Source: Promethearchaeia archaeon
Lineage (GTDB): Archaea; Asgardarchaeota; Lokiarchaeia; Sigyniarchaeales; SOKP01
Reading direction: 5' to 3'
Length of the DNA stretch: 64,000 nt
Assembly: GCA_029856145.1 (NCBI GenBank)
Contig: JAHQWK010000030.1
Location: 9,261 to 73,260 of the forward strand
Shown here: positions 2-21,486 of the stretch, piece after piece
How the letters are laid out: each line of letters opens with the position of its first letter
Numbering within the stretch: the first letter of the stretch is position 1
Program-made: the position numbers and the translations under genes
Notes under the pieces: model-generated
What the model saw: only the letters and a program-made list of their open reading frames with translations
Told to the model about the DNA's origin: nothing
Database searches by the model: none

Positions 2-934
2 TATGGTGAATATGGATATGGTGAAATCGAGAATGTTATAACTCAAGTTCAACTAGAACGGATTTTAGCTCCAAATGGACCACTTGAAGGCCATGTGCAC
101 CGAATTTCAGATGATAAAGAGCCTAAAGAAATTGTTTTTATACAGTGCGTGGGAAGTCGAGAAACAGAAAGAACCTATTGTAGTGGTGTATGTTGTATGC
201 TTGCATTAAAAAATGGGCGATTATTACTGGAAGAATTTCCCGATGCGAACATAACAATCTGTTATATTGATATAAGAACTCCTGAAAAAGGATTTGAAGA
301 ATACTATGAACGAGCTAAAGATGCAGGTATTAGAATGATTCGTGGAAAAGTTGGTGAAATCTCTGAAGATCCTGAAACTAAAAATGTGAAAGTTCGCGTA
401 TATTCATCTCTCACAGATAAGATTGTAAAAATTGATGCTGATTTAGTTGTTTTATCTACAGCAGCACTCCCTTCAAAAGGTACTGAACAGATTGTAAAAG
501 TATTAAATCTTGATACTAATATGTATGGCTTTCTTACAGAATCACATTTCGGTTTAATGCCACAAGAAACAAAGGAAAAAGGAATTTTTATTGCTGGATT
601 TGCTCAGGGACCGAAAAATATTTCTTATTCAGTTTCTCAAGCTAGAGCTGCGGCTAGTAAAGTTGCTGAGTTAACATCACCAGGAGAAATCGATATAGAA
701 CTTATTACTGCGGAGGTGGACAGTGAATTCTGCATTTCTTGTAGACGATGCGAAAAAGAATGTCCTAAAAATGCCATTAGGATTGAAAAGGATATCGGTG
801 CGTTTATTGATGAAATAAATTGTGACGGATGCGGTATTTGTGCTACGTGTTGTCCTACTCAAGCAATTGATATCAGATATTATCGAGATCATCAATTATT
901 TGCTGAAATTGATGGTCTTTTAGGAGGTGGTTAA
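2..934 (+). CDS. hdrA: Heterodisulfide reductase subunit A-like flavoprotein, C-terminal part (5' end outside window)
   Basis: Frame is open from base 2 (YGEYGYGEIENVITQVQLERILAPNGP), upstream of the tracked start at 95. Motifs IQCVGSR, YCSGVCC and GIFIAGFAQGPK, plus two C-terminal CxxCxxCxxxCP ferredoxin motifs. Confidence 0.93.
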   Translation, partial: YGEYGYGEIENVITQVQLERILAPNGPLEGHVHRISDDKEPKEIVFIQCVGSRETERTYCSGVCCMLALKNGRLLLEEFPDANITICYIDIRTPEKGFEEYYERAKDAGIRMIRGKVGEISEDPETKNVKVRVYSSLTDKIVKIDADLVVLSTAALPSKGTEQIVKVLNLDTNMYGFLTESHFGLMPQETKEKGIFIAGFAQGPKNISYSVSQARAAASKVAELTSPGEIDIELITAEVDSEFCISCRRCEKECPKNAIRIEKDIGAFIDEINCDGCGICATCCPTQAIDIRYYRDHQLFAEIDGLLGGG

Positions 935-940
935 ACAAAC

Positions 941-1402
941 ATGAATAATACTTATAATATGATCGTGTTTGCTTGCTTAAAATGAGGATATAGCGCGGCT
1001 GATTTAGCTGGGGTTTCCCGATTAAAGTATACTCCTGCGGTAAAAATTATCAAAGTAAGATGTACCGGTAGAGTTGACATTAAGCACATTTTGTATAGCA
1101 TTCGTGCGGGAGCTGATGGTGTTATGATTGTCGGTTGAAGACCTAATGAATGTCAATTTAAAAACGGTAATTTCACAGCCGAAAGGCATGTTGATTTAGC
1201 AAATAGAATCTTAGAATCTAGAGGTTTCGGTAGTCAAAGAATAAATATGTATTGGTTAAGTGGAGGAGATGCTGGGAAATTTGTCGAATCTGTCGAGGAT
1301 GCTTACGAAAAGGTAAAAAAAGCTGGACCAAGTCCACTGAACTTAGAACCCGAAGAAATGAAAGTTGATACAAAACAAGTTATAACTACCCCTACAGAAT
1401 GA
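941..1402 (+). CDS. mvhD: Selenocysteine-containing MvhD/VhuD [2Fe-2S] subunit (153 aa, Sec15 and Sec66); absent from the ORF track
   Basis: Manual translation gives MNNTYNMIVFACLK-U-GYSAADLAGVSRLKYTPAVKIIKVRCTGRVD...GADGVMIVG-U-RPNECQF...KKAGPSPL. TGA at 983-985 and 1136-1138 align with the Cys of CNWC and GCH in the paralogs at 8488 and 21052. SD GGAGGTGG lies upstream and a SECIS-like hairpin lies at the 3' end. Confidence 0.93.
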
Positions 1403-1455
1403 TTCTTATAAACAAATTCTAGTTATAAGAAGACTAACCTTGCAAGGGAAGGGGT
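1388..1455 (+). promoter_or_regulatory. Eukaryote-type SECIS element (selenocysteine insertion sequence)
   Basis: AUGA (1399-1402), perfect 9-bp stem TTCTTATAA (1403-1411)/TTATAAGAA (1423-1431), loop containing AAA, then GA (1432-1433): the RUGA..GA kink-turn core. Possible lower helix ACCCCT (1388-1393)/AGGGGT (1450-1455). Confidence 0.85.
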
Positions 1456-1520
1456 TTTTAAATAGTATTCAATTAAAAATAAAAATTTTTATAGAAAATG
1501 TAATCCAAAAGGATGAAAAT

Positions 1521-3017
1521 ATGGTTCAAATTTCAAGAACTATCAATTTCAATGGAATATCGCCAAGAAATTTAATGGATGCCACCTATAAAGCAGTCGA
1601 AAACTTTCAAATTAGGGCATTTTTCGAAGCAAAAGATGAAATTTTGAAAACTGGAAAATATTCTGAAGAAGAATTTTATGAAATATTAGATACTATGATC
1701 GATGCTGAAACAGAGCGTAAATTAGTGTTAGAGGCATTAATAGGTAAAGAACCGTTATTTTTAGAGGAAATTTCAAAAACTCTAAAAGATTTTCCACCAG
1801 AAAACGTCATTCGTGATATTATTTATCTTAAAGAACAAGGATATATTGAAGAACATATTGAAATAAAAACTAAAACAGTCATTAAGAAAATAAAGGGAGA
1901 AGAAAAAGAAGTCGAGGAAAAAGAATATTTCTATAGGTATCAAGTTAAAGAGATACCTGATGGTTTTATTGAACATTTTTTTGAAACCGTTTCTATTGTG
2001 TTTGATTTTAAAGTATGCTGTCAATGTGGTTGGTGCTCATCAATTTGCCCTGTTAATGCAATTACAGTCACCGCAGACACTTTAGAGATTGATGATGAAA
2101 CTTGTATAAAATGTGGCTTATGTTATTCTGTTTGTCCGAGATCTTTTTCAATTGAACAAGCAGGTAAAAGTATAAATAAACTTGATAAATCTTTAAAATT
2201 TTCAGAAAAAATTAATAGTTATATTAATACATATTCTGCCACCACCACTAAGGATGAAATTAAAAAAGTTCGACAAGATGGTGGGATTGTAACTTCTCTA
2301 CTCGAATATTTACTCAAAAATAAATTAGTTGACGCCATTGTAGCAGTACAACATTCGAAGGACTTATGGAAACCAGAACCAGTAATAGTAGAAGACATTA
2401 AAGATTTGTACAAAACTAGTGGAACTAAATACGCAAATGCATCAACATTAAGTATAATCGATGAAACAAAAAAGTACGATAATATTGCGATTGTAGGTGT
2501 CCCGTGTATGATGAACGCTTTAGAAAAAGGAAATTTATTTCCAAGTAGACTGCCTTTTTTCAAGAATATCAAATATAGAATAGGACTTTTCTGCATGGAA
2601 TCTTTTCCTTACGAGGGCGTCCTTAACTTAATTAAAGAACAATTTCAAACAGATTTTAAAAAAGTAACAAAAATGGATATAAGTGGAGGTAAATTCATTA
2701 TATACTTAGATTCTGGTGAGGACTTAAGAGTACCCTTAAAGGAAGTTAAATCTTATGCTCGGTACAATTGTCATTTTTGCGAGGATCTAACATGCGATTT
2801 TGCAGATGTCAGTATTGGCTCAATTGGTTCACCCAGTGGGTGGTCTTCGGTAATAACGAGAACTAAATTAGGCGATAAACTTTTTAAGGACGCTATTAAG
2901 AAAGGATTAATTGAATCTAAAAGTTTAAAGGATGTTAAACCTGGACAACCCTTACTTGAACGGATAGCTGGAATAAAAAGAAAAAATTGTAAACCAATCA
3001 AATTGGAAAAGGAGTAA
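1521..3017 (+). CDS. FrhB/FdhB-family F420-binding subunit with 2x[4Fe-4S] and an N-terminal helical/wHTH-like extension
   Basis: QDGGIVTSLL, SGTKY, VGVPC, IGLFCMESF and CHFCEDLT..ADVSIGSIGS motifs; two ferredoxin motifs. ATG 1521 follows AGGATGA; the tracked TTG at 1440 lies inside the SECIS region. Confidence 0.88.
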   Translation: MVQISRTINFNGISPRNLMDATYKAVENFQIRAFFEAKDEILKTGKYSEEEFYEILDTMIDAETERKLVLEALIGKEPLFLEEISKTLKDFPPENVIRDIIYLKEQGYIEEHIEIKTKTVIKKIKGEEKEVEEKEYFYRYQVKEIPDGFIEHFFETVSIVFDFKVCCQCGWCSSICPVNAITVTADTLEIDDETCIKCGLCYSVCPRSFSIEQAGKSINKLDKSLKFSEKINSYINTYSATTTKDEIKKVRQDGGIVTSLLEYLLKNKLVDAIVAVQHSKDLWKPEPVIVEDIKDLYKTSGTKYANASTLSIIDETKKYDNIAIVGVPCMMNALEKGNLFPSRLPFFKNIKYRIGLFCMESFPYEGVLNLIKEQFQTDFKKVTKMDISGGKFIIYLDSGEDLRVPLKEVKSYARYNCHFCEDLTCDFADVSIGSIGSPSGWSSVITRTKLGDKLFKDAIKKGLIESKSLKDVKPGQPLLERIAGIKRKNCKPIKLEKE

Positions 3018-3033
3018 TGTAAAAGTTATTATT

Positions 3034-4146
3034 ATGAGTATAAAAACTTTTCAAGATTTAATTAAGGAAGTTCACGAAAAAGGAATCTGCCAAGAATGTG
3101 GAGGATGCACTTCTTTCTGTTCAGCAGCATTCGAAACTGTTATAGGCTTCAAAAAACCTAATTCTCCTCCTGAATACATAAACAAAGATGCATGCCTTGA
3201 GTGCGGTATATGTTATTACTTATGCCCTCAAACACATATCTTAGATGATGACCTAAATAATACTTATCAATTCACTGATTTTACATCAATGCCTTACGGA
3301 TTTGCTGAAGATGTCTATTCTTGTCAGACTATAGATGAAGAATTTCTTAAACATGGGACAGATGGAGGTGTGGTAAATACACTTTTAAATTTCTTATTAG
3401 AAAATAAAATTATCGATGGAGCAATAGTCTCTAAAGTTGAGAGTCCATTTTCTCGAGAAGCCATGTTAGCAGAGAATAAAGGTGACCTAATTAAAGCATC
3501 GGGTACAATTTTGAATGTATCTCCACAAGTAGATGAAATACAAAGGTTTAGCACTTATACACGCTCAATTCCTCAATTAAGTCATTATAAATTTAAAAAG
3601 TTAGCAATTGTGGGAACACCTTGTCAAATTTATACTATTAGATGTATGCAAACTTTAGGTGTTACCCCTTCGGAACATATTGAGATTTGTTTTGGTTTAT
3701 TCTGTTATCATAATTTTCTATTTGAAAAATCTCAAATCGAGAAATTTGAAAAAGAGTTTAAGGTAAAATTTGAAGATATAAAAAAAATAAACATTAAGGA
3801 AGATTTAATTCTAAAGGTAGAGGATAAAAACTCAAAAGAAAAGATAATTCATATTCCTTTTAATAAATTAGTTAATTATATACGCCCAGCTTGCCATTCC
3901 TGTCTTGATTTTACTAATGTTTATTCAGATATTTCGTTTGGAGGGCTTGGATCTCCAGACAAATTTACCACTGTAATTCCTCGTACTGAAAAAGGTAAAC
4001 AATTATTCCAAAAAGCATTAGATAAAAATATAATTAAGAATCTAAAACTTGATGAAAATGTAAAAAGAAATATGAAAACCCTAATAACAAAGTTTTCTAA
4101 ATCAAAAATTGAACGAAGAAATGAATTCATGAAAAACTTAAAATAA
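3034..4146 (+). CDS. Second FrhB/FdhB-family F420 hydrogenase/dehydrogenase beta subunit
   Basis: CQECGGC and CLECGICYYLCP, TDGGVVNTLL, VGTPCQ, GLFC, CHSCLDFT..SDISFGGLGS. Confidence 0.88.
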   Translation: MSIKTFQDLIKEVHEKGICQECGGCTSFCSAAFETVIGFKKPNSPPEYINKDACLECGICYYLCPQTHILDDDLNNTYQFTDFTSMPYGFAEDVYSCQTIDEEFLKHGTDGGVVNTLLNFLLENKIIDGAIVSKVESPFSREAMLAENKGDLIKASGTILNVSPQVDEIQRFSTYTRSIPQLSHYKFKKLAIVGTPCQIYTIRCMQTLGVTPSEHIEICFGLFCYHNFLFEKSQIEKFEKEFKVKFEDIKKINIKEDLILKVEDKNSKEKIIHIPFNKLVNYIRPACHSCLDFTNVYSDISFGGLGSPDKFTTVIPRTEKGKQLFQKALDKNIIKNLKLDENVKRNMKTLITKFSKSKIERRNEFMKNLK

Positions 4147-4150
4147 GGAA

Positions 4151-5428
4151 GTGAATTTTATAGTAGAAATTGAAAGATCTAAAAGGGCAAAATTGGAAGC
4201 AGATGAATTTGATTCGTACTTAAGAAAGATATATGAACCAAATTTAATTGATTTATTGAAAAAATGCTATCAATGCGCCCGTTGCTCAGGTGTATGTCAA
4301 ATCAGTAAAGTTCAAAAATTTACACCTAGTAGAATCATTCAAATGATATTAGAAGGTTTTGAAGATGAGATAATTAATAGTCAGGTATTATGGGATTGTT
4401 TAATGTGCAATAGTTGCTTACAACATTGCCCTAAAGATATTAATTTTGCTGATATTGTCAGAATGGCTAGATATAAAATGCGAACAAAAGATATCCAAAA
4501 TCCTGATCGTTCTATTGCTCATAAAGGTATTTATCCTCTAATGTCAGAACTTATGATTCAAAAAAATATTAAAATTGAAAGACCTTTAGATTGGATTCCA
4601 AAAGGCTGTAAAATTTCAAATAAAGGAGATATTTTATATTATGTAGGATGTTTACCTTTCTTTAATTATGAATTTCAAGACTCAAATTCCATAGCAGAAA
4701 GCACTTTAAAGATTATTTGTCAATTAGAAAAAGATCCAGTAGTTATTCTTAAAGATGAAATATGTTGTGGTCACGATTTATATTGGGGTCAAGCAAAATT
4801 CGAAGTTTTTATCGAATTAGCAAAAAAAAATATAAATATCTTTGAAAAAGCAGGAATCTCAAAAATAGTTACTGCATGTGCTGAATGTTATAGAACTTTT
4901 AAAATTGATTACCCGAAGCTTTTTGAAGATTTTAATGAAAAATTTGAAGTTAAACACATAATTGAATATATATATGATAAGTGGAAGCAGGGAAAAGTCC
5001 AATTTAAAAATCCTAATGAATCTAGTGATGTTATTCCTTTCACTTATCATGACCCTTGTAGATTAAGTAGATTTTTACCAAAGGATAATAAAATTATTGA
5101 GAAAGTCCGAGAAATCTTCAAACATTTGAAGACAATAGGATATAATTTTAATGAAATGGAACATAATAAAGAAAATTCCTATTGTTGTGGAGTAAATTCT
5201 TGGATGAATTGTAATGAAAAGTCTAAAGCTTTACGATATAAGCGTCTTTTAGAAGCTAAAGCTGCTGGAACAAAAATGATTACAGCATGCCCAAAATGTC
5301 GAATGCACTTAAATTGTCTAAAAAAAGACTATGAAGACTTCTCCTCTATTGAAATCTTAGATTTTTCAGAATTCTTAGTGGATTTTATAAAAATAATAGA
5401 ACCTAATCAAACAGTTGAGGAGAAGTAA
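4151..5428 (+). CDS. HdrD-like Fe-S oxidoreductase (HdrC-like 2x[4Fe-4S] plus two CCG domains)
   Basis: CYQCARCSGVC, CLMCNSCLQHCP, YYVGC, ICCG, TACAEC, YHDPCRL, CCG, TACPKC. The exact start is uncertain. Confidence 0.9.
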   Translation: MNFIVEIERSKRAKLEADEFDSYLRKIYEPNLIDLLKKCYQCARCSGVCQISKVQKFTPSRIIQMILEGFEDEIINSQVLWDCLMCNSCLQHCPKDINFADIVRMARYKMRTKDIQNPDRSIAHKGIYPLMSELMIQKNIKIERPLDWIPKGCKISNKGDILYYVGCLPFFNYEFQDSNSIAESTLKIICQLEKDPVVILKDEICCGHDLYWGQAKFEVFIELAKKNINIFEKAGISKIVTACAECYRTFKIDYPKLFEDFNEKFEVKHIIEYIYDKWKQGKVQFKNPNESSDVIPFTYHDPCRLSRFLPKDNKIIEKVREIFKHLKTIGYNFNEMEHNKENSYCCGVNSWMNCNEKSKALRYKRLLEAKAAGTKMITACPKCRMHLNCLKKDYEDFSSIEILDFSEFLVDFIKIIEPNQTVEEK

Positions 5429-8400
5429 TGGAGAAAGTCGGCGCTGTCTTAGTTATTGGTGGCGGAATTGCAGGGATCCAAACTTCTATAGATTTAGCAG
5501 ATTCAGGTTATAAAGTTTATCTAGCAGAATCGACAACCAGTATAGGTGGGGTTATGTCTCAATTAGATAAGACATTTCCAACTAATGACTGTGCAATATG
5601 TATACTTGCCCCAAAATTGGTACAAACTGGTCGACATGAAAATATCGATATTTTAATTAATTCATCAATTGAAAAAATTGAAGGTGTTCCTGGTAATTTT
5701 AATCTTGATTTAACTCAAAGAACGCTTCTTTTGGATCATAATAAATGTACAGGGTGCGGGTTATGTGCTCAACATTGTCCTATAGAGGCTATAGATTTTT
5801 TTAATGAGAAGCTTTCTAATATTGCAGCAATATCTGTAAAATTTCCTCAAGCAGTTCCATTAGTGTTCTCAATTAATAAAGAAAAATGTATAGGTTGCGG
5901 TATTTGTAAAGGAATTTGTAAAGCAAAAGCTATAGATTACGAACTTCAAAATGAATTAATTAACCTCAATGTAGGAGCTGTAGTATTAGCAATTGGGTTT
6001 GATGAATACGATCCTACACCTTTAACGCAATTTGGTTACGGTAAGCATTTAAATGTGATTACTAGTATTGAATTTGAACGTATACTCAGTGCTAGTGGAC
6101 CACACTCAGGTTTAATAATTCGCCCTTCTGATGGAATTATCCCTAGAAAAATTGCCTTTTTACATTGTATAGGGTCAAGGGATAGAAAACATAGAATTGA
6201 ATACTGCTCTTCTGTGTGTTGTATGTATACTACAAAGGAAGCAGTAATAGCAAAAGAGCATATGAATATTATAGAACCAACTATTTTTACAATGGATGTC
6301 AGAGCATATGGTAAAGATTTTGATAAATATATTGAACGAGCGAAGAATGAGTATGGAGTAAGATATATCAGACGTAGAATATCTTCTATTAAGGAAATTC
6401 CGGACTCTAAAGATTTAAAGGTTTATTATGAAACAGGAAATGGAAAAATTATTGAAGAAATTTTTAATCTAGTCGTCCTTTCTGTAGGAATGCAACCTAA
6501 TCAACAAGCAAAAGAACTAGCACAGAAATTAAATATCCAGTTAAATGAATATGGGTTTTGTAAAACTGGAACTTTTAACCCAGTAGAAACTTCAAGACCA
6601 GGGATTTATGTTTGTGGGTCTTTCGCAACACCTAAAGATATTCCAGAAACTGTTATTGAAGCTAGTGCTGCTGCTGGATGTGTAAATGTTCTTTTATCAG
6701 AAGCAAGAAACAAATTAGTCTCTAAGAAAGAACTTCCCGAGGAAATAGATGTAAGTGATCAACCACCGCGAATAGGAGTATTTATATGTCATTGCGGGAT
6801 AAATATTGGTGGGGTTGTTGATGTTCCTGATGTAGTTGAATATGTGAAAACTTTACCTGATGTAGTTTATGCAGAACATAATTTATATACCTGTTCAGCA
6901 GATACTCAGACTATTATTAAAGAAAAAATCGAAGAAAACCAACTCAATAGAGTTATCGTTGCCTCATGTACTCCAAGAACACATGAACCTTTATTTCAAG
7001 CAACAATCAGGGAGGTTGGTTTAAATAAATATCTTTTTGAAATGGTTAATATTCGAGATCAATGTTCATGGGTTCATATGCATGAACCTGAAAGAGCAAC
7101 CGCAAAATCAAAAGATTTATTGCGTATGTCAGTGGCGAAGGCTAGTCAATTAATCCCGTTACAGGAACAAGAAATCACTGTAATAAATAAAGGGCTAATT
7201 ATAGGCGGGGGTGTATCTGGAATGTCAGCAGCATTAAATTTAGCTTCTCAAGGGTATGAAGTTTTCTTAATTGAAAAGGAAGAAGCTCTAGGTGGGCTTG
7301 CTAAAAATATTTATCGAACCCTCGAAAATGATGATACCCAGGAATATCTTGAAAACCTAATTAAAAATGTTGAAGATAATCAACTAATTCAAGTATATAA
7401 AAATGCTCAAATCAATTCAATATCAGGATATATAGGAAATTTTTCCACAAATGTAAGCTACGGAAATAATAGCAAAAGTGTTGATCTAGAACATGGGATA
7501 ATCATTGTAGCTACTGGCGCAAAAGAATATCAACCAAAAGAATATAGTTTCGGGCAAGATCAAAGAATTATATCTCAAACTGAATTTGAAAAAGATCTTT
7601 TTACTACGGATAAAATAAAAGGATTGAAATCAGTTGTTATGATTCAATGCGTTGGATCTAGAAATGAAGATCACTCCTACTGTAGCAGAATCTGCTGTTC
7701 AGAAGCCATTAAAAATGCGTTGAAAGCAAAAGAAATCAATCCTAATATAGAAATAGTGATTCTATATCGTGATATTCGAACATATGGTTTTAAAGAAAAA
7801 TACTATAACTTAGCACGAGATAAAAAGATTATTTTCATTAGATTTGATGAAACTAAACTTCCTGAATTAAATATTAAAAATAAACAGTTAATAATAACAG
7901 TAAACAATCCAGATTTAGGAGAACTTGAAATAAATCCAGATTTAATTGTGTTAAGTACGGGGCTTGTAGCACCCATAAAAGAAAACGAAGAGTTAGCAAA
8001 AATGTTAAAAGTTCCACTTAATGAGGATAAATTCTTTTTAGAAGCTCATGTTAAATTGAGACCAATTGATTTTGCAACAGACGGTATATATTTATGTGGG
8101 TGTGCACATTCGCCTAAAGATCTTCGAGAATCAATTGCCCAATCTAATGGAGCTGCTGGTCAAGCAGTTAAAATCTTAAGTGCTAAAAAACTTGTAACAT
8201 CTGGGCTTGTAGCTGTCGTAATAGAGGAAAATTGCATTGGCTGTGGAAGCTGTATGGAAGTCTGTCAATTTAATGCTATAGAATTAATAGAGGAAGAAAG
8301 AACATTTGAAGATTTCACAATGACTATAAAGAAATCCCACATAAATCCAGCGCTTTGTAAAGGTTGTGGCACATGTGGTGCTCAATGCCCTAATTCAACA

Positions 8401-8469
8401 ATAGTTATTAAACATTTTGGTTTTGAGCAAATTCACGCTATGATTTCTGCTCTTTTAGTCCAAAGTTAA
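5428..8469 (+). CDS. hdrA: Large (about 1000 aa) two-module HdrA-like flavoprotein
   Basis: VLVIGGGIAG, QLDKTFPTNDC, CHCGINIG, SCTPRTHE, NIRDQCSWVH, a second GGGVSG FAD motif, EAHVKLRP and ferredoxin motifs. Start overlaps the upstream stop (TAATG). Confidence 0.95.
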   Translation: MEKVGAVLVIGGGIAGIQTSIDLADSGYKVYLAESTTSIGGVMSQLDKTFPTNDCAICILAPKLVQTGRHENIDILINSSIEKIEGVPGNFNLDLTQRTLLLDHNKCTGCGLCAQHCPIEAIDFFNEKLSNIAAISVKFPQAVPLVFSINKEKCIGCGICKGICKAKAIDYELQNELINLNVGAVVLAIGFDEYDPTPLTQFGYGKHLNVITSIEFERILSASGPHSGLIIRPSDGIIPRKIAFLHCIGSRDRKHRIEYCSSVCCMYTTKEAVIAKEHMNIIEPTIFTMDVRAYGKDFDKYIERAKNEYGVRYIRRRISSIKEIPDSKDLKVYYETGNGKIIEEIFNLVVLSVGMQPNQQAKELAQKLNIQLNEYGFCKTGTFNPVETSRPGIYVCGSFATPKDIPETVIEASAAAGCVNVLLSEARNKLVSKKELPEEIDVSDQPPRIGVFICHCGINIGGVVDVPDVVEYVKTLPDVVYAEHNLYTCSADTQTIIKEKIEENQLNRVIVASCTPRTHEPLFQATIREVGLNKYLFEMVNIRDQCSWVHMHEPERATAKSKDLLRMSVAKASQLIPLQEQEITVINKGLIIGGGVSGMSAALNLASQGYEVFLIEKEEALGGLAKNIYRTLENDDTQEYLENLIKNVEDNQLIQVYKNAQINSISGYIGNFSTNVSYGNNSKSVDLEHGIIIVATGAKEYQPKEYSFGQDQRIISQTEFEKDLFTTDKIKGLKSVVMIQCVGSRNEDHSYCSRICCSEAIKNALKAKEINPNIEIVILYRDIRTYGFKEKYYNLARDKKIIFIRFDETKLPELNIKNKQLIITVNNPDLGELEINPDLIVLSTGLVAPIKENEELAKMLKVPLNEDKFFLEAHVKLRPIDFATDGIYLCGCAHSPKDLRESIAQSNGAAGQAVKILSAKKLVTSGLVAVVIEENCIGCGSCMEVCQFNAIELIEEERTFEDFTMTIKKSHINPALCKGCGTCGAQCPNSTIVIKHFGFEQIHAMISALLVQS

Positions 8470-8487
8470 ATTATAAGGTATTAATTT

Positions 8488-8919
8488 ATGTCTAAGTCAA
8501 AAAAGAAAGTAAATAAAAAGGATTTTCACCCTAATATATTGTGTTTTTGTTGTAATTGGTGTAGTTATGCTGGGGCAGATTTAGCTGGCGTATCTCGTTT
8601 TCAATACCCTCCCACTATTAGAATAGTAAGAGTAATGTGCTCTGGTAGAGTAGACCCGGCTTTTATTTTAGAAGCATTTAGAGATGGGATTGACGGAGTC
8701 ATTGTGACAGGCTGTCACATTGGTGACTGTCATTATCTGAAAGGAAATGAGTTTGCAAGAGATAGGTTTGAAAATTTTCAGGAAGTTCTAAAAATATTCA
8801 ATCTTGAAAAAAGATTTAGACTTGAATGGGTTAGTGCGTCTGAAGGAAAAAGATTTGCTGAAGTTATTACGGAATTTACAAATGAAATTAAAAAACTAGG
8901 TCCATTACAAGCAATTTAA
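8488..8919 (+). CDS. mvhD: MvhD [2Fe-2S] subunit, cysteine form
   Basis: FCCNWCSYAGADLAGVSR, RVMCSGRVD, GCHIGDCHY, WVSASEG. Confidence 0.96.
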   Translation: MSKSKKKVNKKDFHPNILCFCCNWCSYAGADLAGVSRFQYPPTIRIVRVMCSGRVDPAFILEAFRDGIDGVIVTGCHIGDCHYLKGNEFARDRFENFQEVLKIFNLEKRFRLEWVSASEGKRFAEVITEFTNEIKKLGPLQAI

Positions 8920-16644: not shown

Positions 16645-17934
16645 TTGAATGAAGTGAATATTATTACTGAGACTAAAAAAACAGATGATTCAGAAGAACT
16701 CAGCGATGACATCAATTCTTACATTGAAAAAGTTTATGAACCAAATATAAGGAAATTATTGTATAGATGTTATCAATGTGTTCGCTGTAGTGGTGTCTGT
16801 CAACTCAGCAAGGTTCAGACTTTTGAACCTAGTAGAATAATTCAAATGATATTAGAGGGTTTTGAAGATAAAATTATTGAGAGTGGCATTTTATGGGATT
16901 GTTTAACTTGTAATGCTTGTCTTCAAAATTGTCCTGAAGGAATTAATTTTGCAGATATTGTTAGAATGACAAAATATAAAATGCGAGAATCGTATAATCA
17001 AAACCCGGATGATTTTATTGCTCATAAAGGTGTATATACCACTATCTCAGAGATAATGAGTGAATCTCATATAATTCCAGAAAGATCCCTTGAATGGGTT
17101 CCTAAGGGATGTGAAATTTCAAAACAAGGAAAGATTATGTTTTATGTTGGGTGTTTACCCTATTTTAATTTTGAGTTTGAAAATTCAGATTCTATAGCAG
17201 AAAGCACTTTAAGCATACTTTGCCAGATTGAAAAAGAGCCAATTGTAGTTCTTCAAGATGAAATTTGTTGTGGACATGACCTTTATTGGGGTCAAGGAAA
17301 ACTCAAAGAATTTATCAATTTGGGGAAGAGGAATATTAAAAGAATTGAAGAAACTGGAGTTAAGACAATAATTACGGCATGTGCTGAATGTTATAGGACA
17401 TTTAAAGTAGATTATCCGAATTTATTTGAAAATTTTAATAAAAAATTCGTTATCAAACATTTAATTGAGTATGTCTATGAAAATTGGAAAGCAAATAAAA
17501 TTGAATTTAAGAACCCATCTGAAAAAGAACAACCAATTCCATTTACTTATCATGACCCATGTCGTCTAAGTAGATTTTTACCGAAAGATAGTAAGATAAT
17601 AGATAATGTACGTGAAATTTTTTCTCATTTAAAGCAAATAGGATATGAATTTTCTGAAATGCTACATAATAAAACTGATGCTTTGTGCTGTGGAGTAAGT
17701 TCCTGGATGAATTGCAATGATCGCTCAAAAGCCTTACGCTATAAAAGGTTATTAGAAGCAAAAGATGCAGGGGAAATAATGGTCACTTCATGTCCTAAGT
17801 GTAAAATACATTTGTCTTGTCTACAAGAAGACTATGAAGATATCGCATCAATAGAAATAGTAGATTTTTCTGAATTCTTAGTTAATCTAATAACTATTGT
17901 AGATTCTAATCAAAAGGTGGAGGGAGAAAAATAA
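16645..17934 (+). CDS. HdrD-like Fe-S oxidoreductase (paralog of 4151..5428)
   Basis: CYQCVRCSGVC, CLTCNACLQNCP, two CCG domains, YHDPCRL. Confidence 0.9.
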   Translation: MNEVNIITETKKTDDSEELSDDINSYIEKVYEPNIRKLLYRCYQCVRCSGVCQLSKVQTFEPSRIIQMILEGFEDKIIESGILWDCLTCNACLQNCPEGINFADIVRMTKYKMRESYNQNPDDFIAHKGVYTTISEIMSESHIIPERSLEWVPKGCEISKQGKIMFYVGCLPYFNFEFENSDSIAESTLSILCQIEKEPIVVLQDEICCGHDLYWGQGKLKEFINLGKRNIKRIEETGVKTIITACAECYRTFKVDYPNLFENFNKKFVIKHLIEYVYENWKANKIEFKNPSEKEQPIPFTYHDPCRLSRFLPKDSKIIDNVREIFSHLKQIGYEFSEMLHNKTDALCCGVSSWMNCNDRSKALRYKRLLEAKDAGEIMVTSCPKCKIHLSCLQEDYEDIASIEIVDFSEFLVNLITIVDSNQKVEGEK

Positions 17935-20900
17935 TGGAGGGTTCAGTGTTAGTCATTGGAGGAGGTATAGCAGGAATTCAAATTTCTCTTGATCTCACCG
18001 AATTAGGATTTAAAGTTTATTTAGTGGAAAAATCACCTTCAATTGGAGGAAGAATGGCTCAATTGGATAAAACATTTCCAACATTAGATTGCTCTTTATG
18101 TATCTTAGCCCCAAAAATGGTTGAAGTGTTTCGGAATCCCAATATTGAATTGATGACTTACCATGAGGTTCTTCATATTGATGGTGAACCTGGTAATTTT
18201 ACTGCCAAAATTCTAAAGAAACCTCGATATGTTGACGAGGAAAAATGTAAAGGTTGTGGTGATTGTGCTAATAAGTGTCCAAAAATTTTGGCTCCAAATC
18301 CTTTTGAAATGAATATTGGTAAAAGAAAATCTGTATATATTCCTTTTCCTCAAGCGGTACCTCCTATCTACTTAATTGACTCAGAGATGTGTTTGTATTT
18401 ACAAAAAGGAGTATGTCAAGTATGTAAAAAAGTATGCACTGCAGAAGCAATCGATTTTGAACAGAAACCTGAAGAATTTGACATTAAAGTTGGAGCTGTA
18501 GTGGTCGCAACTGGTTTTGAGATGCCTGCTGAAAACTTATCTTCAAGATGGGGTTATAGATACGAAAATGTTGTAAGTGCTCTTGAATATGAAAGGATAT
18601 TATGCGCATCTGGACCATTTGATGGGCATGTCATGAGATTAAGCGATGATAAAGAACCTGAGGTTATCGCTTTTGTTCAATGTGCAGGTTCAAGAGATCT
18701 TCATGAAAATGTACCTTTTTGTTCTAGCGTTTGTTGCACTTATACGGCAAAACAAGCAATAATAACCCAAGAACATTCGGATAATTCAGAATGTTATGTC
18801 TTTCGGCATGACATTCGTGCGTATGGTAAAAATTTCTATGAATTCACACAAAGAGCGCAAAAAGAATATGGAGTAAAATATTTTCAATCAAAAATAAGTA
18901 CAATTAAAGAAGATCCTGATACTCAAGATCTATTCATACATTATGAGGATTTAAAGACAGGTGAATTTAAAGATTTTCGTGCTAATTTGGTTGTTTTAGC
19001 ATCACCCTTAGTTCCATCAAAAGGAGTTAAAGAATTAGGATACTCTTTAGGAATTGAGTTAGATAAGTATAATTTTTTCCAAGAAAAGTCATATTTTGAT
19101 AAATTAAAGTCTTCTAGAGATGGAGTTTTCTTATGTGGATTTTGCCAAGGACCAATGGATATTCCAGAGACAGTTGCAGACGCTAGTGGAGTAGCAGCAC
19201 AAATTGCTAATTTATTAAATTCCGTCAAATTTACTCAAATGAAAGAGAAAGTATTTGATGTACCGGAAAAAGAAATTAAAATTACAGATGAACCAAGAAT
19301 AGGAGTAATGGTTTGTCATTGTGGAATTAATATTGGAAACTATGTAGATGTGCCAAGAGTAGTAGAATATGTTAAGGAATTACAAAATGTAGTGGTTTGT
19401 GAAGCAAATTTATACTCTTGTTCTTCTGATTCTCAAATAAGGATTAAGGAATTAATTGCTGAATATGATTTAAATCGGTTTATCGTAGCATCTTGCACTC
19501 CTAGGACCCACGAATCATTATTTCAAGAAACATGCCAAGAAGGAGGTCTGAACAAATATCTTTTTGAGCTTGTAAATATTCGAGATCAATGTTCCTGGGT
19601 TCACATGACAGAAAAAGAAGCAGCTACAGAAAAAGCTATAGATTTAATTAGGATGCATGTTGCTAAATCAAAATTATTAAAGCCACAAAAGGAAGATAAA
19701 GTTGACATTACACATACAGCATTAATTATTGGTGGGGGCGTTTCTGGTATGACCGCAGCGTTAAATATTGCTAATCAAGGATTTAAAGCATACCTTGTCG
19801 AAAAGGAAAGCGAATTAGGTGGAAACCTAAAATTTCTAAATGTTTTGTATCCAGTTCATAAGAATGCCTTAGAATTTTTACGTGAATTAAAAGAGAAAAT
19901 AGATAAAAACAACAATATTCAAGTATTCTTAAATGGTGGAATTAAAAATATCAAAGGTTATGTTGGAAATTATGACGTAGTTATAAATGATTCAAATAAC
20001 GAAATTCATGATGTAAAAATTGGAACAATAATAGTTGCTACTGGAGGCCAAGAATTTAAACCATCAGGTCTTTTTGGGTATAATGATAAAAATAAGAATG
20101 TAATGACTCAATTGGAGTTAGAACAGAAATTACAAAATAAGGATCATTCATGGTTAGATCAAATTAATCGAGTAACAATAATTTTATGCGTAAATGCTAG
20201 ACAAGATGAAGGTATAACCTACTGTTCTAATATCTGTTGTGCGAATTCAATAAAAAATGTTAGAATATTAAAAGAATTGAAGCCTGAATTAGAAATTGTT
20301 GTAATTTACAGAGATTTACAAATGGCTAAGAAAGAATTCGAGGAATACTATCGTGAACGTAGAAAGGACGCAATTTTTCTTAGATATGACTTAGAAAAGC
20401 TACCAGAAGTAAAAAAGAAAAAAGGTACTCCCGAAAAATTTCAGATAATAGTATTCGATACTAATTTAAAAGACAATCTTGAATTTGAAACAGATTTAAT
20501 ATTACTTTCGACACCCATGATTCCCGCAGATAATTTGAAAGAATTAGCAATGATGCTTAAAGTTCCATTAGATAAGAATGGTTTCTTCTTAGAAGCACAT
20601 GTTAAATTACGACCTTTGGATTTTGCTACAGAAGGAATTTTCTTATGTGGATGTGCTCAATGGCCAAAGAATATTCAGGATTCAATTTCACAAGCTAATG
20701 GTGCTGCCGGTAGAGCAAGTAGGTTCCTAAGTGCAGATAAAATTACCACATCTGGATTAGTAGCTGAAGTCTCAGAAGAGAAATGCATTGGATGTGGAAA
20801 ATGTGAAGATGTATGTCCTTATAAAGCAATAAGTCTCATAGAAATAATAAAAGAATTTGAGGATATCAGTATTAAAGTCAATAAATCTAATATCAATGCT

Positions 20901-21035
20901 GCTGTATGTAAAGGTTGTGGAACATGTGCTGCAACATGCCCCGTTGGAGCTATAATGGTAAAACATTATGATTTTGATCAAATTTCTACAATGATTGATT
21001 CCTACTTATTAGAAAAGGAGGAAGTTAAGAATTAG
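17934..21035 (+). CDS. hdrA: Large two-module HdrA-like flavoprotein
   Basis: GGGIAG, QLDKTFPTLDC, CHCGINIG, NIRDQCSWVH, EAHVKLRP. Start overlaps the upstream stop. Confidence 0.95.
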   Translation: MEGSVLVIGGGIAGIQISLDLTELGFKVYLVEKSPSIGGRMAQLDKTFPTLDCSLCILAPKMVEVFRNPNIELMTYHEVLHIDGEPGNFTAKILKKPRYVDEEKCKGCGDCANKCPKILAPNPFEMNIGKRKSVYIPFPQAVPPIYLIDSEMCLYLQKGVCQVCKKVCTAEAIDFEQKPEEFDIKVGAVVVATGFEMPAENLSSRWGYRYENVVSALEYERILCASGPFDGHVMRLSDDKEPEVIAFVQCAGSRDLHENVPFCSSVCCTYTAKQAIITQEHSDNSECYVFRHDIRAYGKNFYEFTQRAQKEYGVKYFQSKISTIKEDPDTQDLFIHYEDLKTGEFKDFRANLVVLASPLVPSKGVKELGYSLGIELDKYNFFQEKSYFDKLKSSRDGVFLCGFCQGPMDIPETVADASGVAAQIANLLNSVKFTQMKEKVFDVPEKEIKITDEPRIGVMVCHCGINIGNYVDVPRVVEYVKELQNVVVCEANLYSCSSDSQIRIKELIAEYDLNRFIVASCTPRTHESLFQETCQEGGLNKYLFELVNIRDQCSWVHMTEKEAATEKAIDLIRMHVAKSKLLKPQKEDKVDITHTALIIGGGVSGMTAALNIANQGFKAYLVEKESELGGNLKFLNVLYPVHKNALEFLRELKEKIDKNNNIQVFLNGGIKNIKGYVGNYDVVINDSNNEIHDVKIGTIIVATGGQEFKPSGLFGYNDKNKNVMTQLELEQKLQNKDHSWLDQINRVTIILCVNARQDEGITYCSNICCANSIKNVRILKELKPELEIVVIYRDLQMAKKEFEEYYRERRKDAIFLRYDLEKLPEVKKKKGTPEKFQIIVFDTNLKDNLEFETDLILLSTPMIPADNLKELAMMLKVPLDKNGFFLEAHVKLRPLDFATEGIFLCGCAQWPKNIQDSISQANGAAGRASRFLSADKITTSGLVAEVSEEKCIGCGKCEDVCPYKAISLIEIIKEFEDISIKVNKSNINAAVCKGCGTCAATCPVGAIMVKHYDFDQISTMIDSYLLEKEEVKN

Positions 21036-21051
21036 TTCTTAGGTGATAATC

Positions 21052-21486
21052 ATGTCGAAATCAAATAAGAAAGCAAAACAAGAAGGATTTGAACCCAACA
21101 TTTTGGTTTTTTGTTGTAATTGGTGTAGCTATGCTGGAGCAGATTTAGCAGGGGTTTCACGATTTCAATATCCCCCCAATATCAGGATAATAAGGGTAAT
21201 GTGTTCTGGACGAGTAGATCCTTCATTTGTGTTAAAAGCTTTAAAGAACGGTGTTGATGGAGTCCTTGTAAGTGGATGCCATATAGGCGATTGTCATTAT
21301 ATTACAGGAAATGAATATACACAGGAAAGATTTGAAAGACTACATTCAATTTTAATAAAACAATTGGGAGTAGATCCTAAACGAGTACGACTAGAATGGG
21401 TAAGTGCGTCTGAAGGAAAGAGATTTGCTGAAGTAATAACAGAATTTACTAATCAAATTAAAGAATTAGGGCCATTAAGACCTTAG
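21052..21486 (+). CDS. mvhD: MvhD [2Fe-2S] subunit, cysteine form
   Basis: FCCNWCSYAGADLAG, GCHIGDCHY. ATG 21052 lies 5 nt after SD GGTGA. Confidence 0.96.
   Translation: MSKSNKKAKQEGFEPNILVFCCNWCSYAGADLAGVSRFQYPPNIRIIRVMCSGRVDPSFVLKALKNGVDGVLVSGCHIGDCHYITGNEYTQERFERLHSILIKQLGVDPKRVRLEWVSASEGKRFAEVITEFTNQIKELGPLRP

Follow-up and report, generated by a model that had tools for sequence, protein, structure and literature searches.

The window, the whole 64,000-nucleotide stretch of DNA that was analysed (G000:C30:9261-73260, from a host genome of 3.55 Mb and 30% GC), begins inside hdrA, the 3' part of which occupies positions 2-934 on the + strand (complete gene G000:C30:8254-10194) and ends in a TAA stop at 932-934. 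After a gap of 6 nt, a second + strand frame, vhuD/mvhD, runs from ATG 941 to 1402; direct read-through of the window sequence gives 153 residues and a stop, and the in-frame stops are limited to three TGA triplets: codon 15 (983-985), codon 66 (1136-1138), and the terminator (1400-1402). A putative Shine-Dalgarno sequence, GGAGGTGG, is visible at 920-927 (+ strand), 13 nt before the ATG. Listing ORFs with translation table 11 recovers just a 51-aa fragment (1247-1402) of this frame; a standard gene caller would thus miss vhuD and leave an apparent gap. The first-pass annotation had claimed precisely this, namely an mvhD frame after hdrA that was interrupted solely by TGA at 983 and 1136 and was overlooked in ORF calling, and both statements are borne out.

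The read-through product covers positions 2-123 of the 123 in Pfam profile PF02662 (FlpD/MvhD; E 4.4e-42, 143.4 bits against a gathering cut-off of 22.3). Its best solved relative is Methanococcus maripaludis VhuD from the super-assembly of Hdr, Vhu, and Fwd (9sfi_K, E 4.5e-39), with the structures of Cys-type MvhDs scoring lower, at about 1e-29 to 1e-30. The alignment is full length and places codons 15 and 66 on the two Sec residues of the solved protein, X14 and X65, respectively (KUGY vs QXGY; GURPNEC vs GXKPNEC). The two MvhD paralogs encoded within the window, at 8488-8919 and 21043-21486, both have Cys in each of the TGA columns (CLKU vs CNWC; GURPNEC vs GCHIGDC), in agreement with the earlier assignment of the TGAs to paralog cysteines. 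Overall, VhuD has five conserved Cys-type positions, C12, U15, C41, U66, and C71, each of which aligns with Cys both in the paralogs and in the MvhDs of solved structure. From the homology to 9sfi_K, 5odc_D, and 9sw2_D, together with the synteny with hdrA, VhuD is predicted to bind a [2Fe-2S] cluster and to dock on HdrA.

The upstream gene had been taken as hdrA, and the Pfam FAD and Fer4 domains of its read-through product, as well as its match along the full length of HdrA from M. maripaludis (9sfi_A, E 8.5e-195), uphold that identification. The hdrA frame itself contains four TGAs on the + strand, at contig positions 8296, 8398, 8473, and 8848, all upstream of the window. The first three correspond to Cys residues in the N-terminal Fe-S domain of 9sfi_A, and the fourth falls on the M. 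maripaludis HdrA Sec, X197 (DDCAIU vs DDCAMX). The 6-nt spacer suggests that translation of hdrA and vhuD is coupled.

By Pfam search, vhuD is flanked by FrhB/FdhB-like genes at 1440-3017 and 3034-4146, and by another upstream on the minus strand; beyond these are HdrB/C-like genes and large HdrA-like ones, accompanied by Cys-type MvhDs. The latter form a redox module that is repeated in window region 1440-21486, occurring twice (4151-8919 and 16645-21486) in the order FrhB/FdhB-like genes, an HdrB/C-like CCG+Fer4 gene (about 425 aa), a giant double HdrA-like gene, and a Cys-type MvhD; the giant double HdrA-like proteins of the two modules are 1013 and 1033 aa. In the mechanism that we propose, VhuD would be the small [2Fe-2S] subunit docked on HdrA, and electrons would pass from an input module, whether hydrogenase, formate dehydrogenase, or F420-type, through VhuD towards HdrA's bifurcating FAD. 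A family search of the genome gave one match to the [NiFe] hydrogenase large subunit, on another contig.

The SECIS element at the 3' end of vhuD

Mariotti et al. (2016, PMC4989117) reported that Lokiarchaeota use a SECIS element (lokiSECIS), situated near the stop codon, in which AUGA is followed by a 9-bp stem with an apical loop of 11 nt and then by GA; the first five bases of the loop are A-rich, and the loop closes with G, usually after an A. An RNAalifold consensus, a pattern search, and a covariance model all place such a type I, eukaryote-like element at 1377-1459 (+ strand), over the end of vhuD. Its lower stem pairs 1388-1393 with 1450-1455 (RNAalifold on 18 same-genus orthologs) and is followed by a T-run at 1455-1459. 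The AUGA core, identified both by eye and by the pattern search, is at 1399-1402 and contains the UGA stop of vhuD. The upper stem is formed by UUCUUAUAA (1403-1411) and UUAUAAGAA (1423-1431), nine Watson-Crick pairs with no mismatch; the 11-nt apical loop between them, ACAAAUUCUAG (1412-1422), has A at four of its first five bases and ends in AG, and GA (1432-1433) directly follows the stem.

Every same-genus ortholog whose 3' end is complete (18/18) retains the element, as do 48/48 public orthologs, where the stem carries at most one mismatch. AUGA does not vary among the 18 sequences aligned from the genus, and it encloses the stop UGA in 17 of the 18 complete same-genus orthologs, as it does in almost every public one. 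RNAalifold recovered both the 9-bp stem and the lower stem from the 18 sequences, and 6 of 18 pairs have changed on both sides with pairing kept, including pairs 27-55 (UA/AU/CG), 30-52 (UA/UG/CG), 32-50 (AU/GC), and 14-77 (CG/UA); this covariation is mostly within one genus and its depth is modest, and further variants occur in the public orthologs. A strict lokiSECIS pattern matches six times in the genome, as opposed to zero or one time in composition-preserving shuffles, and five of the six matches are directly 3' of frames with TGAs at Cys positions (three VhuD paralogs with two Sec each, a Prx-like frame, and one that ends in tandem UU). A covariance model built on the same-genus alignment (model R1) scores 107 bits at the vhuD 3' end; it also matches G000:C22:125119-125200 (+, 49.7 bits) and C26:76618-76697 (+, 32.8 bits).

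The free energy of the region 1385-1450, folded as a single sequence, is unexceptional (z = -1.4). A short AU-rich hairpin is indistinguishable by energy alone, and support for the SECIS was therefore taken from conservation, covariation, and the genome-wide pattern. Nor is the lack of any Rfam match at gathering thresholds within the 64-kb window evidence against the element, because the Rfam SECIS models miss lokiSECIS. The Asgard selenoprotein literature cited here contains no reporter assay of an Asgard SECIS; the element is predicted to direct Sec insertion at the UGAs upstream of it.

With filters off, model R1 found no second SECIS at E<0.5 on the + strand of C30:1-10800, a region that takes in both genes, and its single match there argues that hdrA has no SECIS of its own. 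One lokiSECIS per hdrA-vhuD pair is the published arrangement (PMC4989117), and the vhuD element most likely serves the four hdrA UGAs as well; it would then act on six UGAs, the first of which is about 2.36 kb upstream. Mariotti et al. (2016, PMC4989117) noted that HdrA never ends in UGA, as they predicted where a cistron shares a SECIS located downstream, and the TAA terminator of the present hdrA matches that prediction. The terminal UGA of vhuD at 1400 is presumably too near the SECIS to be recoded, following the minimal-distance argument of the same authors; were it read through, three codons (U-F-L) would be added before TAA at 1409-1411.

The two genes are presumably carried on one bicistronic mRNA. 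The SECIS lower stem ends in GGGGTTTTT, after which come an AT-rich spacer with a TTTATA-like box (window 1450-1520) and, at 1521, the likely ATG of the next FrhB-like gene. This layout suggests that the hdrA-vhuD transcript ends near 1450-1520 and that the FrhB-like gene has its own promoter. An RNA-library contig also stops at about 1530, which is weak evidence for the transcript end. A scan of the + strand for sigma-70 promoters and intrinsic terminators returned nothing useful, those models not being applicable to archaea.

Conservation, decoding machinery, and competing explanations

Two sets of orthologs were collected, probably with some overlap: searching 40 relatives in all six frames gave an ortholog of 68-86% identity in each of 18 same-genus genomes, and 48 full orthologs at 66-97% identity were found on public Promethearchaeota/Asgard MAG contigs. 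Conservation of the TGAs among relatives was one of the checks proposed in the first-pass annotation, and both are kept in every case, 18/18 of the complete same-genus orthologs in the codon alignment and 48/48 of the public ones (one of which, L076, was checked by hand), or 66/66 across the two sets. Synonymous divergence among the same-genus genes is high (dS about 1-1.5), and pooled Nei-Gojobori estimates of dN/dS are 0.23 for the codons preceding the first TGA, 0.058 for those between the two, and 0.10 over the 65 codons 3' of the second, indicating strong purifying selection past the putative stops.

The last 25 codons of vhuD (1325-1402) behave differently: dN/dS is 0.85, pS is lowered to 0.38 from the 0.55-0.65 found elsewhere in the gene, and the C-terminus, …ITTPxE, is nearly fixed. 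The pattern fits constraint from the overlapping SECIS lower stem and core, not from the protein. Several of the orthologs, 67-84% identical, come from MAGs titled Odinarchaeota, Hermodarchaeota, Hodarchaeota, Thorarchaeota, and a Sumerlaeota bacterium (L059, L067, L078-L082, L091, L094); identity this close across phylum labels suggests wrongly named bins or contamination with foreign contigs, and not a genuine spread between phyla.

Metatranscriptomes were also represented. A contig about 96% identical to the window covers 725-1530, and therewith the hdrA 3' end, vhuD, and the SECIS, and none of the 31 differences listed for it touches a TGA, which is weak support for a selenoprotein gene. 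Three RNA libraries in all cover vhuD, as assembled contigs that do not prove transcription, strand, or a single transcript, and a lack of coverage elsewhere in the stretch carries no information.

The genome also encodes the machinery to decode UGA as Sec, for which the first-pass annotation had proposed a search. tRNA-Sec (G000:C8:12919-13007, -; 62 bits, above the Rfam cut-off) is called SeC with anticodon TCA by ARAGORN, which found no tRNA in the 64-kb window itself, the tRNA-Sec being on another contig. Directly beside it is SepSecS (G000:C8:11546-12703, -; 374 bits, above the curated cut-off), and 4 kb from the two is a SelB/EFSec-like gene (G000:C8:17129-18019, +; 231 bits), the whole forming a Sec cluster at C8:11546-18019. 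Both the SelB/EFSec-like gene and a PSTK-like gene (146 bits) are clear best matches that score below the NCBIfam curated cut-offs, as is expected for divergent Asgard versions, although such scores are not proof of identity. Two tandem SelD/SPS genes (G000:C9:622849-624880, +) exceed the curated cut-off, each with one in-frame TGA; multiple selD copies are a peculiarity of Loki- and Thorarchaeota (Huang et al. 2024, PMC11227280). UGA15 and UGA66 would be decoded as Sec by tRNA-Sec and the archaeal/eukaryotic-type pathway of PSTK, SepSecS, SelD, and EFSec, under the direction of the one 3' lokiSECIS whose AUGA core holds the vhuD stop.

MvhD-family genes number 11 in this genome, four of them Sec-type with two TGAs and seven Cys-type. 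A SECIS follows all four of the former and none of the seven latter. The three Sec-type paralogs other than vhuD, each with a SECIS after it, are at G000:C2:22414-22869 (-), C2:105939-106456 (-), and C25:80180-80690 (+), with the motifs CDKU/ISU, CWKU, and CWKU/NAU.

The vhuD/mvhD gene at 941-1402 is real, and we put the probability at roughly 95% that it encodes a functional two-Sec selenoprotein read via the lokiSECIS; insertion of Sec at UGA15 and UGA66, and the use of one SECIS for both cistrons, are what the genomic evidence predicts. The first-pass annotation had likewise favored a functional selenoprotein over a pseudogene, and TGA conservation, low dN/dS, the SECIS, the machinery, and the homology at the Sec positions all support that choice.

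One rival explanation is a conditional gene, in which Sec is inserted only when selenium is available and translation otherwise stops at codon 15, with Cys-type paralogs substituting. Sec-type and Cys-type MvhDs do coexist here, and there is a precedent for such Sec/Cys switching in Methanococcus, where Vhc replaces Vhu (PMC13518236). However, the Cys paralogs are just 36-38% identical to VhuD and sit beside different, much larger HdrA-like genes, and are thus not simple isoforms of it; moreover, this would be a refinement of the selenoprotein reading and not a replacement, and as an independent account we consider it very improbable.

It is also highly unlikely that the UGAs are read through without Sec, either by a near-cognate Cys or Trp tRNA or following a lineage-wide reassignment of UGA. 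Stop-codon recoding other than Sec is reported for some Asgard lineages (PMC9723677), but in this genome TGA closes 201 of 1428 long frames (14%) and is therefore an ordinary stop, the code not being reassigned. In addition, in-frame TGAs are confined to the Cys-equivalent positions of known selenoprotein families and have a SECIS 3' of them, and the genome maintains a dedicated tRNA-Sec and SepSecS; reassignment was rejected on these grounds.

A decaying pseudogene, i.e., an mvhD copy with two nonsense mutations, might be proposed from the way in which table-11 ORF calling fragments the frame, and from the seven intact Cys-type paralogs that could render vhuD redundant. Against this, TGAs that are identical in 66/66 orthologs at 66-97% identity, together with a dN/dS of 0.06-0.10 3' of the TGAs, rule out decay; there are also no further stops or frameshifts, the SECIS is conserved behind the gene, and the TGAs coincide exactly with the Sec residues of a selenoprotein of solved structure. 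The pseudogene was rejected as effectively refuted, with a negligible chance of being correct. Sequencing error was weighed as a source of the two TGAs and was rejected too.

Predicted roles of Sec15 and Sec66

In solved complexes, VhuD or MvhD delivers electrons towards the bifurcating FAD (PMC13518236; PMC13580544), and the 2026 structure papers raise the question of the path taken from MvhD to that flavin. Both TGA sites were originally described as those of [2Fe-2S]-ligand cysteines. For codon 66 that is likely to stand, but for codon 15 it is probably wrong, as the aligned residue, MvhD Cys16, is reported to be a conserved additional cysteine that lies, together with HdrA Cys202/Cys205, between the cluster and the FAD and is not a ligand (PMC13580544). 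Neither PMC13518236 (Nature 2026) nor PMC13188914 (a 2026 review) says whether the cluster is ligated by the Sec residues of VhuD, and of these three papers only PMC13580544, with its phrase "additional Cys16", bears on the question. The correction ties vhuD to a live mechanistic debate over electron transfer from MvhD to the bifurcating flavin.

The solved Cys-type proteins used for comparison were Methanothermococcus thermolithotrophicus MvhD (5odc_D) and 9sw2_D, which we take to be the M. marburgensis MvhD of PMC13580544. Sec15 aligns with MvhD Cys16, and Sec66 with MvhD Cys67. VhuD shares with these two structures and with the window paralogs the fold family and the Cys-type positions 12, 15, 41, 66, and 71; it differs in having Sec and not Cys at 15 and 66, in its 36-38% identity to the window paralogs, and in its SECIS, which those paralogs lack. 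A basic and an acidic residue also flank the second site in both types of protein, R67 and E70 here occupying the positions of His68 and Asp71 in the 9sfi-related MvhD.

The five conserved Cys-type positions of the MvhD/VhuD/FlpD family comprise four [2Fe-2S] ligands and one extra cysteine. With position 15 being the extra one, C12, C41, U66, and C71 remain as ligands by elimination, which makes Sec66 a likely ligand of the VhuD cluster. Sec15 is probably a non-ligand redox residue that faces the HdrA Cys196/Sec199 pair.

More tentatively, the two selenocysteines may divide the labor. With Sec66 as a cluster ligand and Sec15 opposite HdrA Cys196-x-x-Sec199, a selenium-based two-electron relay (selenylsulfide or diselenide) could connect the one-electron cluster to the bifurcating FAD. 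We rate this idea, which draws on the published structures and the VhuD alignment, as possible but doubtful. Were it true, co-translation from one mRNA with one SECIS would keep the Se-bearing VhuD and HdrA partners matched, and the arrangement would bear on the electron path from MvhD to FAD that the structure papers leave in question.

Relation to known systems and other Sec frames in the genome

The two-Sec VhuD with a lokiSECIS is already known, having been published in 2016 by Mariotti et al. as tandem HdrA-VhuD selenoprotein genes of Lokiarchaeota with one shared lokiSECIS (PMC4989117) and matched by Huang et al. (2024, PMC11227280), who catalogued hdrA-frhD across 227 Sec-using Asgard genomes; the first-pass annotation was correct to call the class known. 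In that survey, no selenoprotein sequences are more abundant than hdrA and frhD/mvhD/vhuD, which are always adjacent and have a common type I eSECIS-like element (PMC11227280; reviewed in PMC13188914). Like the Loki genes of 2016, the present vhuD encodes a protein of about 150 aa with two Sec, directly 3' of a multi-Sec hdrA on the same strand and separated from it by a very short spacer; hdrA has TAA as its stop, and there is a single SECIS, behind vhuD. Six UGAs over about 2.4 kb is the published maximum, and occupation of the AUGA core by a UGA stop has also been described, the one difference being that the published overlapping stop belongs to VhuU.1, whereas here and in nearly all orthologs it is that of VhuD. 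We found no substantive departure of this copy from the published Lokiarchaeial and Asgard description.

M. maripaludis VhuD has Sec at the same two alignment positions, is likewise a [2Fe-2S] subunit that binds HdrA, and is encoded in synteny with hdrA. In contrast, the SECIS of methanococcal genes is of the archaeal GAA_A type, an AUGA motif being confined to hdrA and vhuD, and their HdrA has a single Sec; the host here, an Asgard archaeon, is a non-methanogen, and its vhuD neighbors are FrhB/FdhB-like rather than vhuAGU. The eukaryotic type I SECIS has in common with lokiSECIS a kink-turn core (AUGA...GA), an apical loop with unpaired A's, a 3' location, and action at a distance, whereas lokiSECIS has a shorter upper stem (9 bp), extends over the stop codon, and is apparently used by two cistrons. 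No SBP2 is known from Asgard archaea.

Annotation of this genome should reinstate vhuD and the four-Sec hdrA, without which one of its core redox complexes looks broken. The copy described here is a clean and well-conserved case of six UGAs in two cistrons with one eukaryote-like SECIS and a stop in the AUGA core, and the arrangement is stable over the 66 orthologs of two probably overlapping sets. It opens no new question.

Two further frames with a lokiSECIS were observed on another contig. A Prx-like, thioredoxin-fold frame at G000:C9:430658-431237 (+) has one TGA (GNWUSHC) and a lokiSECIS 6 nt past its end, and fits the published PrxL selenoprotein. The other, at G000:C9:170425-170956 (+), contains a tandem TGA-TGA (…VVHADUU…) followed by a perfect lokiSECIS, ATGA GACTTTTCA AAAAATGCTAG TGAAAAGTT AA, with AA as its 3' core; by motif, this UU frame matches none of the five published Loki selenoprotein families.
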